Origin: Isurus oxyrinchus
Taxonomy: Eukaryota
Length of the DNA: 64,000 nucleotides
Assembly (NCBI GenBank): GCA_026770705.1
Contig: JANJGN010000071.1
Location: forward strand, 124,001-188,000
Reading direction: 5' to 3'
The notes under the pieces are model-generated. The model was given only the letters and a program-made list of their open reading frames with translations. It did not search any database and had not been told where the DNA came from. This document shows, piece after piece, positions 1,344-30,642 of this stretch (its first letter is position 1; every line of letters starts with the position of its first letter). The position numbers were made by a program, and so were the translations under genes.

Positions 1344-1483
1344 ACAGTGGAGGAGAGATTCTGCATGTGATCCTGATCCTGGGAATACGAGCTGTGATAT
1401 TCCTTGTGGCTGTGGTTATCACTATCACTGGAGTCTGTGTCTGGGAGAGACAAACAGTGAAAGGAAGTCGACAGACTGTTTGA
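1344..1483 (+). CDS. Gene A: transmembrane/terminal coding exon of an activating-type Ig-superfamily (probably Siglec-like) receptor; upstream exons lie outside the window
   Basis: Acceptor ttctctag ends at 1343. The phase-1 frame reads xSGGEILHVILILGIRAVIFLVAVVITITGVCVWERQTVKGSRQTV*, a hydrophobic helix with an internal Arg (CGA 1388-1390). Downstream sequence 2415-2780 is homologous to the 3' UTR of gene B. Confidence 0.7.
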
Positions 1484-1589
1484 AGCTTTGTAAAGCAACA
1501 ATCTGGTCAGTCAGTGCGGACAAATAACGTGTGATGTTGTGTTAAGTTGTAATCAAACTGGTCAGTGTCCTGGTTAGAATCACCTTCGT

Positions 1590-2200
1590 ATCAGAGAGGC
1601 ATTCCAGCACAGTAGGAGACCATTCAGCCCATTAAGTCTATGCTGTCTCTGTGTAGAGCAATCCACTCAGTCCCATTCCCCCGCTCTATCCCCGTATCCC
1701 TGCAAGTTTATTTCCAAGTGTCCATCCAATTTCCTTTTGAAATCGTTCATCGTCTCCACTTCCACCATCCTCGTAGGTAGCGAGTTCCAGCTCATTACCA
1801 CTCGCTGTGTAAAAAAGTTCCTCCTCACATCCCCCCACTGCCCACAACCTTCAATCTGTGTCCCCCAGTCCTTGTCCCATCAGCTAATGGCAACAGCTTC
1901 TCTTTGTCTACCGTATCTAAACCCATCATCATCTTGTACACCTCGATCAGATCCCCCCTCAATCTCCTTTGCTCCAAGGAGAACAACCCCAGCTTCTCCA
2001 ACCCAACCTTGTAGCTAAAATCCCTCATCCCTGGACCCATTCTGCTCAATCTCCTCCCCACCCTCTCAAGGACCCTCACTTCCTTCCCAAAGTGAGGAGA
2101 CCAGAACTGGACACAATACTCTAGCTGTGACCTAACCAGAGCTTTATAAATGTTCAGCATAACCTCCCTGTGTTTGTACTCAATCCCTCCATTTATGAAA
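1590..2200 (-). mobile_element. CR1-type LINE 3' fragment
   Basis: Minus-strand ORF 1825-2250 contains LNIYKALVRSQLEYCVQFWSP...LFSLEQRRLRGDLIEVYK, the typical CR1 ORF2 C-terminus. Confidence 0.9.
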
Positions 2201-2414
2201 AGCTTATTCTTTCCATCAGCACAAACAACAATTTCCAAGCGGACTCCCATCAGCAGACAGAGTGCAATGAAACATCGGCATGCCTGCTTCTTAATGTACG
2301 GAGAGAAACCTGGAATGAGATATTCTCCTTCTTCTCCTCAGCAAGCTGAAACTTTTCCTTATACCTGGTGCTCCCCAGTCCTGCTGTGTGGACACATCAT
2401 AACCACGGCATTGT

Positions 2415-2780
2415 CTGGCTGTGTGCAGCCAACATGGTCAAATAGGAATGAACAGAAATGTGACGTTGCTAAACTCTGTTCTCTGATTGGAATGTGCTTT
2501 CTGAATGCTGCACCTTTTTCATGCTGCGATAGATTGTAAGAAGCATTTGGGTTATGAATAAAATTACATTGATTAACACAAGTGATTAAAATGTTCAGCC
2601 TTTTCTGTAGATACTTATGGATTAAAATTCTTATTTTGCTGCCAGATTCTTGGCTCAAAGACATTATTTCATGTTGTCACTTTTTCCAGTCAGATGAATT
2701 CCTGTGGCCATCTTTATAATGGAAATTTTCAATGTAAACACATCACATTGCAGCTGCACACTCCTGCCAGTGGTGGTGCC
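2415..2780 (+). other. 3' UTR/flank of gene A, paralogous to the gene B 3' UTR; AATAAA at 2557-2562
   Basis: tgtgtgcagccaacatgg...ctttctgaatgctgcaccttttt aligns with 30670-30836. The segment attaaaatg...ctcctgccagtggtggtgc aligns with 32941-33140. Confidence 0.7.
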
Positions 2781-2919
2781 ATTCCAAAACAGTCTTGCTG
2801 CACCAACACAGTGAGAATTATTCTCGACATGTACATGATGTTGTTGTTACACAGACATCAGGCGGAATCTTGGGCTGTGCCTAGAATGCACTTAGGACAT
2901 TGCAGACCACGCACAGAAC

Positions 2920-27633: not shown

Positions 27634-28782
27634 ATGAGAAATGGGGAGTGGGAGTGAGGAGATGTGGGTGTGCGGGTAGGGATTGAGATCCCTGGGAACA
27701 GGAAACAACCCACTGGGGGAGAGGGGGAGAGAGGGAGGAAGGGATGGAATTGGGCTGCGGTTGGTGTGGTTTGGAATGAAATGCTTCTCCAGAGAGGACT
27801 GGATGCTGAGCCATTGAGGAGTGAGATTCACTGTCTCTCTCTCTCTCTCTCTCTCTTCCTCTCTGTCTCTCTCTTTCTTTCTGTGTCAGTCTCTCATTCT
27901 CTATCTCTTGCTCCTCCTTTAAGATGACCCTTAATGACTGACTTTGTTGACTCAGCTGTTGGTCTCCTGTCCCTAATATCTCCTCATGTGCCTCAGAGTC
28001 AGGTGAAATGTGACTAACAATCCCCGGATGAGCCTTGGGACATTTTGCTACATTGAAGGTGCTATATAAATGCAAGTTGTTGCAGTAACTCTGATCTGCT
28101 TCGATTAACAATGGAACCACAGAGGTTCCTTCGACAGGGCGTGTGTGCAGCAGGGTCACAATAAATACATTGAGCTGTGAGATTTTTAATTCTTACATCG
28201 AATGTGGCTGTCACTGGTGATGTCCGCATTGATGCCAATCTCTAACTGCCTTTGAGAAGGTGGTGGTGAGCTACCTTCTTCACCCGCTGCAGTGCATGTG
28301 GTGTAGGTACACCCACAGTGCTGTTAGAGAGGGAATTCCAGGATGTTAACCCAGCGACAGTGAAGGAACGGTGATATATTTCCAAGTCAGGATGGTGAGT
28401 GACTTGGAGGGGAACTTCCAGGTGGTGGTGTTCCCATGTGTCTGCTGTCCTTGTCCTTCTGGATGGTAGAGGTCGCGTATTTGGAAGGTGCTGTTGAAGG
28501 AGCCTTGCTGAGTTGCTGCAGTGCATCTTGTAGATGGTACACACACTGCTGCCACTGTGTGTTCATGGTGGAGGGAGTGAATGTTTAATGTGGTGGATGT
28601 GGTATGGATCAATCGGGCTGCTTTGTCCTGGATGGTGTCGAGCGTCTTGATTCTGTGCTTTGTGCAGAGGTGATTTAAAGAGAGAGTCCAGTCATTGGTG
28701 TAAGGTTACAGTGGGCTCTGTGTCTGTGCTGCACTGACTCTCTGCTATATGATAACCACAGTGTGATATTTTGTTATTGCAG

Positions 28783-28864
28783 GAGAAAGACAGCGATGGA
28801 GGAGAGAGTTTCAGGGACCAGTGACATTGCATTGACCCCCAGGTCACTCTCTGTGAAGCACCAG
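28783..28864 (+). CDS. Siglec gene B cytoplasmic exon 1, cassette b
   Basis: Near-identical duplicate of 26318-26399 with intact splice sites. Confidence 0.8.
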
Positions 28865-28999
28865 GTACAGGAGCTGTTTACACTCACTCCAAAGCTTCAA
28901 TCTCAGTGTGTAGACAACATATGTCCCAGATTCCCAGCCCAGTTACCCACTGATTTGTACCTGTGGAGTCAGCAATGGTTCAGTATCATGCTGTCTCTC

Positions 29000-29932
29000 T
29001 GTTATGACACAGCAACTGGTAAAGGCTGTTGCTTAAAATCCCAGAGGGAAACTTTAAACAACTGTCGTAACCTATATTTCGCAGTGGAATGTTTGAGATG
29101 CATCTCTAAATTCAGGAATAAGACCACCAGTTCTCAAGATAATTTTATATCAATCTAAATGAGACATTTATTAATTTTCACAAGTTAAACATATGCACAT
29201 GGCTACAAACTAGTATTATCATAACTTTATAACAAATTCTCAAACTAATCTCCTCCAAGACATCCCATAGACTTTAAGCAGACACCAGGCAAAGCATTTT
29301 CACCTCACAAATTCCAAATGAGGTTCCTTTCACTTTGGTTCCTTTGCAGACAGGTGTAGGCTTACAGCTGCTTTGATGTTACAAGCCTCTGCTCTGCACA
29401 CACAAAACTGCTCAAGTTATACCCAGCTCTTGAGTGTGAAGAAGATGGAGATTGATGGGCTCTTGATTGGTCAGGGGATCAATGGTTAGGAGAGAACGTG
29501 GGAGAATGGGGTTTGTGAAACATATCAGCCATGTATGAATGGTGGAGCAGACTCGATGGACCGAATGGTCTAATTTCTCCTCCTATGTCTTATGGTCTTA
29601 TGGCTTCTGTTTGAAGGTAAATTCGCAATGTATCATCAGGACCTTTGAACTCCATCTCTTCCAATAATAAATCCCCTTTCATCGTATCAATTTTATTAGT
29701 AATATAAACGTTGATTGGTTTAAGATTTCACTCTCAGACTTTGAATGTTTTATTTAAAAATGCAAATTACCACTTTACCTCTTTGTTTGCATCTCAAAAC
29801 TACTATACATCAAAGCACCCAGACTGGCTGGCTTTAATCCAATTAAAATACACACAGACACACACACAGACTAAACCTCTGTTTAAAAAGACAGTTTGCA
29901 TTTATAATACAAACATTAAAAGATTAATAACA
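29000..29932. mobile_element. Solo LTR (complete in cassette b, 3'-deleted in cassette a at about 26536-26850)
   Basis: TGTTAT...ATAACA inverted termini, flanked by ctctc/ctctg. Confidence 0.7.
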
Positions 29933-30393
29933 CTCTGTCTCTATCCCTCCTCTATCCCTCTCTCTCATCCTCTCTCTGATTACAAGGTTCATGTTATTGA
30001 GCCTCACACCAGGCACCTGAGTGCAGAATCCAAGCCGTCACTCACCAGAGCCATTACCGAGGGAGTGCGAGACTGACAGAGGGTCAGTACTGAAGGAGTG
30101 CTGCACTGTCGGAGGGTCAGTACTGAGGGAGTGCTGCACTGACAGAGGGTCAGTACTAAGGGAGCGCTGTATTGTCGGAGGGTCAGCACTGAGGGAGTGC
30201 TGCACTGTTGGAGGGTCAGCACTGAGGGAGTGCTGCACTGTTGGAGGGTCAGTACTGAGGGAGTGCTGCACTGCCATAGGTGGTGCCTTTTATCCGATAG
30301 GAGAGAGAGAATTAAACAAGTCTGCACAATAATTTAACCCTATCAGTGCCAGTAAATGATGTGAGGATGTCTTCTGTTTCCATTTCTCTGTAG

Positions 30394-30642
30394 GGTAAAC
30401 AGAACGTGCTGATTACTGAGCCCCGGAACACAACCAGAGACACAACTAGTGAGGGGGAGACCCCAGCTCCCCGGGGTCTCTCTGAAGGTCCAGTGGGAGG
30501 CGATGTTGGACATGGGAACTCCGACAAACCCGACGAGCTTTTCTACGCCAACATCAACTTTTCAAAGCTGCCCGGCGGTGACAGGACTGTGCACAGGAGC
30601 GAGGACACGGAATACGCACAGATCAGGTTCCAGAAAAACTGA
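30394..30642 (+). CDS. Siglec gene B terminal cytoplasmic exon, cassette b (ITIM LFYANI + ITSM TEYAQI)
   Basis: Phase-0 acceptor, same 249-nt length as cassette a, ORF to TGA 30642. Confidence 0.87.
   Translation, partial: GKQNVLITEPRNTTRDTTSEGETPAPRGLSEGPVGGDVGHGNSDKPDELFYANINFSKLPGGDRTVHRSEDTEYAQIRFQKN

Follow-up and report, generated by a model that had tools for sequence, protein, structure and literature searches.

Two adjacent genes in a 64,000-nucleotide stretch of Isurus oxyrinchus DNA (the window) raise the question of whether sharks carry paired activating and inhibitory Siglecs, a system described from primates (PMC4042635, PMC5701461, PMC13358205). A sequence-only reading had proposed that gene A, with an Arg in its transmembrane (TM) helix, and gene B, with ITIM/ITSM tails, form such a pair. 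We consider it probable that A and B lie in a many-gene shark cluster of paired-receptor Siglecs. Its A-type members would be activating and use an ITAM adaptor, its B-type members would be inhibitory and use phosphatases, and both are predicted to read similar sialylated ligands.

We examined gene A from its TM exon onward; its ectodomain exons lie upstream of the window. Its features are as follows.

1344..1505, plus strand: gene A Arg-TM exon, encoding a short stalk, an apolar stretch with an Arg, and a 12-aa Tyr-free tail
1506..2219, plus strand: gene A 3'-UTR intron, a 714-nt GT..AG skip in a contig, with a LINE-like repeat piece inside
2220..2610 (end approximate), plus strand: gene A non-coding last exon, with 2417-2585 homologous to the gene B 3' UTR

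The TM exon starts at 1344 behind a pyrimidine-rich AG and encodes a 29-residue apolar stretch that includes ILGIRAVIF; the 12 residues of the tail contain no Tyr and end at a TGA (1481-1483). The TM Arg and the Tyr-free tail agree with the earlier reading. The frame and splice sites of the exon are intact, with the donor at 1506 and a probable alternative donor at 1490; the X5 and X6 contigs leave the exon at 1489. A minus-strand frame within the intron is presumably reverse-transcriptase-like, and an AATAAA is located at 2557 in the last exon.

Contig X9-25, a putative RNA, joins the TM exon (1504) to the last exon (2219-2220) by GT..AG splicing. It carries a further 296 nt upstream of the TM exon that do not fit the intron and are close in length to the 297-nt C2 exon. 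The putative-RNA depth was 87-15,000 over the gene A exon versus 0-971 in intron bins at 1100-1282; the runs behind the X5, X6, and X9 contigs are only guessed to be RNA, with none recorded as such and a best share of 0.37. The run contigs diverge from the window by 2-5% and thus may come from paralogues. Depending on which of the two donors is used, the gene A stop lies 6 or 22 nt ahead of the last junction, so the transcript is likely immune to nonsense-mediated decay. Descent of the last exon from an ITIM exon by decay was unsupported, since its first 197 nt matched the gene B tails at chance level (198 and 105 of 1000 shuffles scored as high); a tblastn search against the stored tails also gave no convincing match.

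The gene A last exon ends ~2.1 kb ahead of the gene B ATG, and both genes are on the same strand. The exons of gene B are listed below.

4712..4791, plus strand: signal-peptide exon, ATG at 4752; catshark models P0044 and P0076 have the same N-terminus
10075..10452, plus strand: broken first V-set exon, with an in-frame TAA and Thr in place of the essential Arg
13644..14012, plus strand: intact Siglec V-set exon with YFFRIE and the Siglec cysteine pattern; Pfam V-set and Ig_CD22
14825..15121, plus strand: Ig exon 2, Pfam C2-set_2; 93-98% identical to white-shark Arg-type P0021, P0026, and P0032
19664..19945, plus strand: Ig exon 3a, from the Pfam Ig search
20864..21145, plus strand: Ig exon 3b, a tandem duplicate of 3a (270/282 nt)
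23016..23291, plus strand: Ig exon 4, from the Pfam Ig search
24284..24577, plus strand: membrane-proximal Ig exon, a weak Pfam match (E 1.6e-4)
25498..25594, plus strand: neutral TM exon, with no charged residue in the best 19-23-aa windows
26318..26399, plus strand: tail exon 1, copy 1
27385..27633, plus strand: last tail exon, copy 1, with FLYANP (no canonical ITIM) and the ITSM TEYAQI
28783..28864, plus strand: tail exon 1, copy 2, identical to copy 1 at 81/82 nt
30394..30642, plus strand: last tail exon, copy 2, with the ITIM LFYANI and the ITSM TEYAQI

A non-coding exon ending at 4301 lies 5' of the signal-peptide exon and is present in the read-through model P0039. The top PDB match of the intact V-set was Siglec-5 (E 8.5e-16), with Siglec-15 ranking 18th (E 3e-9). 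The essential Arg of strand F is present, with YFFRIE aligned to YFFRVE of Siglec-5, and alignment to Siglec-5 and MAG showed the Siglec cysteine pattern without an F-strand Cys. This cysteine pattern has structural meaning in Siglec V-sets. Gene B, whose V-set retains the essential Arg and is followed by five C-type Ig exons, a type I TM, and tyrosine motifs, is, by its predicted architecture, a Siglec. Under the ITIM and ITSM definitions given in PMC13358205, the earlier description of a neutral TM followed by ITIM/ITSM tails holds for the TM and for tail 2, while tail 1 has an ITSM only. An internal donor at ~27618 in tail copy 1 would allow in-frame read-on into copy 2, and white-shark isoform models carry tail 1, tail 2, or both. 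The double tail is not an assembly artefact, as it also occurs in white-shark models. The window also contains a broken third gene.

The broken first V exon is 92% identical to the second and retains its splice sites. Its inclusion places a stop at codon 70, and gene B may, judging from this exon, be a null allele. It is thus conceivable, if unlikely, that this particular locus does not work although the family as a whole is paired; gene A could be the end of an orphan gene or of a pseudogene, or gene B could be null through the spliced-in first V. Tandem V-V forms, which are common in white-shark models, agree with such a reading, as do the broken third gene and the position of the gene A upstream exons beyond the window. 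By contrast, skipping the first V leaves gene B with an open frame of 755 aa, V number differs between the related white-shark isoform models P0013 and P0263, and the gene A exon retains its frame and splice sites.

We then compared the two genes directly. Two blocks of homology to gene A were found downstream of the gene B tails.

30668..30840, plus strand: gene B 3' sequence homologous to the gene A last exon
32931..33140, plus strand: second A/B homology block on the B side, versus A 2575-2779 (147/196 nt, 75%), its position shifted by repeat insertions

In the first block, A 2417-2585 matched gene B at 139/168 nt (83%) with a score of 164, compared with a mean of 22 and a maximum of 33 for 200 shuffles. 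The homologous 3' UTR reported earlier is thereby confirmed, and in gene A it forms a separate last exon. The shared sequence follows tail 2 only; the tail-1 flank scored 22, the chance level. A high-copy repeat was rejected as its source, since two copies were present among the window matches listed and its contig depth was close to that of the TM exon in X5, X6, and X9 and mostly below the LINE peaks. The Arg-TM exon and the gene B TM exon gave no alignment with each other, so derivation of one from the other by point mutation was also rejected.

The relationship between A and B became clearer from other sharks. The gene A TM exon is 93% identical to the C-termini of the white-shark Siglec models P0026 and P0021, whose V domains are 93% and 96% identical, respectively, to the gene B V. 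These matches support, at the level of predicted proteins, a single shark Siglec family to which both genes belong and in which architectures of the activating and of the inhibitory type occur. Among 8000 candidates scored, 17 protein clusters, which come from seven galeomorph shark species and all have Ig Pfam domains, carry the Arg-TM exon; it was also present in 7 of 110 proteins retrieved via the V domain, with the Arg in all seven. The TM residue was Arg, not Lys, in 15/15 distinct exon sequences, but 18 other of the 38 columns were equally invariant, several of them forced by the search pattern itself. Of 40 proteins retrieved for the white shark, 13 were of the Arg type and lay on seven scaffolds, six of which also carry the inhibitory type. 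Since ~11 Arg-type loci lie amid many inhibitory-type genes in this species, the shark system is a many-gene cluster with no dedicated 1:1 A/B pair. The paired Siglec system as first proposed thus survives at the family level, in its intermixed types and homogenised ectodomains, and fails as a pair made of A and B alone.

White-shark Arg-type and inhibitory-type V domains reach best identities of 91.7-97.5% and are mosaic across types; mean V identity was 87.0% between types and 86.4% within the inhibitory type. The essential V Arg was present in 10/10 Arg-type loci and in 11/11 inhibitory-type loci examined. In a tree of V+C2 domains, the six Arg-type rows needed 5 changes versus 5.8 when shuffled, whereas shark order needed 5 changes versus 25.6 (0/500 as low), and a single Arg-type clade was rejected (p-AU 0.008); this was a quick search of six Arg rows that left out seven Arg-type proteins lacking a V+C2 pair. 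The ectodomains therefore sort by shark order and not by signaling type, the pattern expected of a homogenised paired family.

We next considered the position of the TM Arg. In Arg-type proteins it is preceded by 7-10 mostly apolar residues and followed by 18, so that it lies inside every best TM window. The distance to the cytoplasmic end is 18 apolar residues in 13 of 14 proteins; if a helix of 21-23 aa is measured back from that end, the Arg falls at position 3-5, but in the best hydropathy windows it falls at 7-11, mid-membrane. FcR-gamma partners are described as having an N-terminal TM Arg and DAP12 partners a central Lys (PMC1440944). For the A-type receptors we lean slightly toward an adaptor of the FcR-gamma/CD3-zeta type; DAP12/DAP10 is rather unlikely, and the lack of any adaptor partner is improbable. 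That A-type proteins are non-signaling Siglecs (decoys or receptors for adhesion or uptake), with the Arg at the outer membrane interface or serving oligomerisation or trafficking, is quite improbable. Such a role would suit the unusually long apolar stretch, the conservation of the entire exon rather than of the Arg alone, and a 2014 survey in which no FcR-gamma gene was found in shark genomes (PMC4016189), a result that also counts against the main reading. Against the non-signaling role, the Arg is within every best TM window, one lone, placed basic residue is reported to suffice for the assembly of several receptors (PMC1440944), and the short Tyr-free tail with a homogenised ectodomain fits the definition of paired receptors given in PMC13358205.

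The activating and inhibitory reading can be set against known systems. Primate Siglecs 5/14 and 11/16 are alike in being linked genes with near-identical V-sets kept similar by conversion, one with an ITIM/ITSM tail and the other with a short tail and a basic TM residue, and their activating members are described as using DAP12, where the shark adaptor is a prediction (PMC4042635, PMC5701461, PMC13358205). The sharks differ from these pairs in having a many-gene array with a separate ectodomain lineage, in the same-strand arrangement of A and B, and in a TM exon of their own, behind which lies a last exon that is non-coding. LILRA and chicken CHIR-A belong to expanding clusters that mix activating and inhibitory receptors, as in the shark family; together with Fc-alpha-RI, they carry C2-type leukocyte receptor complex ectodomains, whereas the shark sensor is a Siglec V-set. 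Fc-alpha-RI and other Ig receptors that couple to FcR-gamma also have a short tail, and their Arg toward the outer TM has a counterpart in the shark proteins when the helix is counted from its cytoplasmic end (PMC1440944). Siglec-15 of fish and mammals likewise activates and has a basic residue in its TM but is a conserved gene whose TM Lys binds DAP10/12, and PMC7226832 describes no converted inhibitory partner for it. The same 2020 paper, in its account of teleost data, describes fish genomes as lacking CD33-related inhibitory Siglecs. Gene B resembles MAG/Siglec-4 and CD33-related Siglecs in its V-set motifs, its core of five domains, and its ITIM+ITSM tail, whereas the shark/ray family forms a branch by itself. 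Our literature search found no description of a shark paired Siglec system. The main text and one supplement of the elephant-shark genome paper contain no mention of Siglecs or of adaptor terms such as, in the main text, ITAM, DAP12, FcR, and CD3.

The shark/ray family forms one side of a branch with support 100, separate from the amniote rows. Its ectodomains do not group with amniote CD33-related Siglecs and its TM type also differs, in a set without human Siglec-14 and -16. All six named amniote Siglec-like TMs carry Lys; in five of them it stands 11-13 residues from the end, in the sixth 17 residues. As the Arg-TM exon cannot be aligned to the gene B TM and is unlike these Lys-type TMs, an origin independent of the mammalian pairs is likely on sequence grounds; the earlier claim of independent evolution is upheld to that extent, short of proof. 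Inheritance of the activating TM as an old gnathostome module common to amniote activating Siglecs is very improbable. Lys-type TMs in mammal and lizard Siglec-like proteins would agree with an old module, as would the TM Arg carried by Siglec-14, and concerted evolution masks ectodomain history, so a shark/amniote ectodomain tree cannot date the TM. On the other side, a limited search found the shark exon only in galeomorph sharks, its residue and position are unlike the amniote type, and TM basic residues of such receptors are argued to arise repeatedly (PMC1440944). Ectodomain sharing as mostly an artefact of chimeric NCBI models, which can arise in tandem arrays and include the plain read-through fusions P0039, P0138, and P0001, is most improbable, given that the V-C2-ArgTM layout recurs on seven white-shark scaffolds and in two catsharks and that the off-stretch 296 nt of X9-25 approximate the C2 exon.

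In the paired-cluster reading, the essential V-set Arg would bind sialic acid, the gene B ITIM/ITSM would recruit SHP-1/2, and the TM Arg of gene A would engage the two Asp residues of a dimeric adaptor. The two sensors would be kept alike by gene conversion and exon shuffling, and a microbe engaging B-type receptors would thereby also trigger A-type ones. The Arg-TM exon would have arisen in the shark lineage, apart from Siglec-14, -15, and -16. A more specific proposal, which we hold only tentatively, is that galeomorph sharks evolved a portable Arg-TM exon that came to be joined to two distant Siglec subfamilies, one CD33/MAG-like and the other sialoadhesin/CD22-like, coupling them to an FcR-gamma/CD3-zeta-type adaptor and not to DAP12. 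If true, the oldest jawed-vertebrate lineage would hold a paired Siglec array on the scale of KIR/LILR, in which the splicing of the tandem tails, one ITSM-only and one ITIM+ITSM, further tunes inhibitory strength. Paired-receptor logic is textbook, so the surprise comes from the lineage involved, from the scale, and from a TM module that is distinct. A large shark array of converted activating and inhibitory Siglecs would serve as an independent natural replicate for the idea that pathogens which exploit inhibitory Siglecs select for activating twins. The A-type receptor would also offer a concrete means of finding out which ITAM adaptors serve the myeloid or NK-like cells of cartilaginous fish. 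The AlphaFold model of white-shark P0032, built from a 6-row alignment, had a pLDDT of 42.7 and carried no weight in the interpretation. NCBI names the shark relatives "MAG-like," "CD33-like," and "Siglec-12/13/14-like," which are labels of similarity and not of orthology.

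The feature is real: it is a galeomorph-shark array of paired-type Siglec genes with its own arginine-bearing transmembrane (Arg-TM) exon. The gene A exon at 1344 was as described in the sequence-only reading, with an Arg in an apolar stretch, a Tyr-free 12-aa tail, and a stop codon at 1481-1483. Gene A and gene B had also been proposed to be paralogues with homologous 3' UTRs. Their 3' sequences matched at 139 of 168 nt, far exceeding 200 shuffles, with a second matching block further downstream; in gene B, tail 2 but not tail 1 is followed by the A-like sequence. No significant similarity to the gene B coding tail was seen in the first 197 nt of the gene A last exon, and the TM exons of the two genes did not align. 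The UTR homology was thus borne out, and the paralogy holds for a duplicated 3' end common to both genes and, judging from family evidence, for the ectodomains, but not for the gene A TM exon, which is a different module.

The window is vertebrate DNA with many repeats. The exons of gene B all lay on the + strand with compatible phases.

Exons of gene B, from exon/phase analysis unless stated
4712-4791, + strand, signal exon
10075-10452, + strand, broken V exon
13644-14012, + strand, intact V exon (Pfam V-set and Ig_CD22 matches)
five exons, + strand, further Ig exons, two of them a 96% tandem copy
25498-25594, + strand, neutral TM exon
two tandem copies, + strand, two-exon tail

Without the broken V exon, a 755-aa open frame is predicted with either tail; with it, a stop occurs at codon 70. 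A search with the intact V exon returned 110 proteins (117 candidates), all from sharks and rays, with white and basking sharks nearest, which puts the source of the window close to the lamniform sharks. All 18 best PDB matches were Siglecs, led by Siglec-5 (E 8.5e-16), in whose alignment YFFRIE of gene B pairs with YFFRVE. Among white-shark paralogues, variation clustered at V residues 48-55 (~13787-13810; up to six residues per column), probably the CC' specificity loop.

The neutral TM expected for gene B was found; of its tails, tail 2 carries ITIM and ITSM as claimed, but tail 1 carries an ITSM only. Positions 25703-30642 are a tandem duplication of the two tail exons, and the two copies of the last exon agree at 97% over their 5' portion and at 75% over their 3' portion. 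In-frame joining of tail 1 to tail 2 is predicted from an internal donor near 27618. White-shark isoform models (XP_041037215-221) contain tail 1, tail 2, or both, and YANP and YANI variants are both present in that species, giving ITSM-only, ITIM+ITSM, or double tails.

Contigs of four of the 20 listed sequencing runs (four studies, putatively RNA) were placed on 1100-2900. Depth over the Arg-TM exon was 8,944-15,306, 183, 231-234, and 87, and over the intron bins at 1100-1282, in the same order, 939-971, 4-5, 7, and 0. The 850-nt contig X9-25 covered 1342-1504, skipped 714 nt with GT..AG ends, and continued over 2219-2609. Its 296 additional upstream letters were unlike the intron and, by their match in size to the 297-nt Siglec C2 exon, probably represent that exon. 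Contigs of runs X5 and X6 departed at 1489, ahead of the GTAAAG donor. The stop lies 22 or 6 nt upstream of the last junction, inside the usual NMD-escape distance. Because the contigs diverged from the window by ~2-5%, the splicing evidence holds for the gene type, not for the window copy.

With the gene A exon alone as query, nine proteins were found (76 candidates), topped by the white-shark models P0026 and P0021 (93%); these have the layout V-C2-ArgTM, and in the V domain they share 93% and 96% identity with gene B. A seven-row Arg-TM profile retrieved at least 17 clusters, all with Ig domains, from white shark, two catsharks, two bamboo sharks, epaulette shark, and whale shark; squalomorphs, rays, and bony fish contributed no cluster among the 8000 candidates scored, a weak hint that they lack the exon. 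In bamboo-shark P0116, P0290, and P0291, the Arg-TM lies on a distant sialoadhesin/CD22-like ectodomain, far from the gene B family in the tree, so the exon appears portable. P0303 and P0304 are likewise sialoadhesin/CD22-like models ending in this exon; the five models come from bamboo, epaulette, and whale sharks.

The 40 white-shark proteins comprised 13 Arg-type, 21 inhibitory-TM type, one third type, and five unclassed. The Arg-type proteins (~11 loci by manual accession grouping, some possibly haplotypes) occupied seven scaffolds, distinguished by length, six of which also carried the inhibitory type. The best-matching V domains of the two types were 91.7-97.5% identical. When each locus was represented by a single protein (10 + 10), Arg-type V domains averaged 91.1% identity to each other and inhibitory-type V domains 86.4%, with a mean of 87.0% between the types, and C2 identity was ~95% in every comparison within and across types. 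The paralogues had 14 variable columns in V versus two in C2, and V variant blocks were common to both types (e.g., P0250/P0269 and P0253/P0027). In a V+C2 tree of 52 rows, from which isoforms, TM-unclassed rows, and seven Arg-type proteins without a V+C2 pair were excluded, the nearest relatives of gene B were the Arg-type P0026 and P0021 (95%). TM type, with six Arg-type rows, required five changes (shuffled, 5.8; 103 of 500 equally low), and shark order also five (shuffled, 25.6; 0 of 500). A single Arg-type clade was rejected (p-AU 0.008). Both the tree and the shared V blocks fit conversion or shuffling of exons, and the sharing across types could be exaggerated by chimeric gene models.

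Some models of the shark family (P0010, P0020, P0022, P0037, P0051, P0060, P0061, P0070, P0077, P0079, P0081, and others) form a third class by their C-terminus, on the same kind of ectodomain: the TM is neutral and Gly-rich, and YxN motifs recur in the tail (YENC...YANV) as possible Grb2-type docking sites. The shark/ray models P0001, P0002, P0003, and P0004 have four to seven tandem Siglec V domains with the essential Arg mostly retained; a fusion of gene models may underlie some of them.

A branch with support 100 in a 132-row FastTree set the shark/ray family apart from eight named amniote rows. Among 150 matches, in a set without human Siglec-14 and -16, the six named amniote proteins whose TM contains a basic residue all used Lys; Siglec-14 has a TM Arg. 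The Lys was followed by 11-13 apolar residues to the TM end in five of six and 17 in one, whereas the shark Arg was followed by 18. The Siglec-like models P0186 (gecko) and P0211 (bearded dragon) have a TM Lys, which suggests that squamates have activating-type Siglecs as well.

According to PMC1440944, an N-terminal TM Arg pairs with FcR-gamma and a central Lys with DAP12; by this rule the shark Arg matches the FcR-gamma type counting from the cytoplasmic end but falls at position 7-11 in hydropathy windows. PMC4016189 gives FcR-gamma as not found in sharks. Beyond the anatomy, splicing, linkage, and mosaic sensors established here, the V-set of shark Siglecs would bind sialic acid, gene-B-type tails would recruit phosphatases, and the gene-A-type Arg would assemble with an adaptor, giving opposite outputs. 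A catshark study later than PMC4016189 reportedly describes both FcR-gamma and CD3-zeta.

Shark Siglec genes already exist as automatic NCBI models with similarity-based names. No description of paired or activating Siglecs in sharks was found in the literature searched, outside which lay most subscription journals and the main Siglec-evolution reviews. In the excerpts available, PMC13358205 defines receptor pairing with no mention of shark or cartilaginous, PMC7226832 gives CD33-related Siglecs as absent from fish, PMC8455134 has a single generic mention, and PMC3964593 gave no Siglec or adaptor matches; PMC5701461 and PMC4042635 deal with primate paired Siglecs.

A third Siglec-like gene on the + strand has a signal exon at 46130-46175 and a V exon at 46997-47267, with no Siglec exons further on to 64000. 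This V exon was 62-64% identical to the sialoadhesin-like V of the Heptranchias and Pristis models P0034 and P0241, has a 5-aa deletion, and ends ahead of the essential-Arg strand, running into a stretch that we take to be retroelement-like and that had no Pfam match. Six N gaps occur in the window, two of them within gene B (18773-19253), and 33-bp and 37-bp tandem repeats recur at 2919-3943, 11730-12682, 23635-23973, 27004-27246, and 30055-30273.
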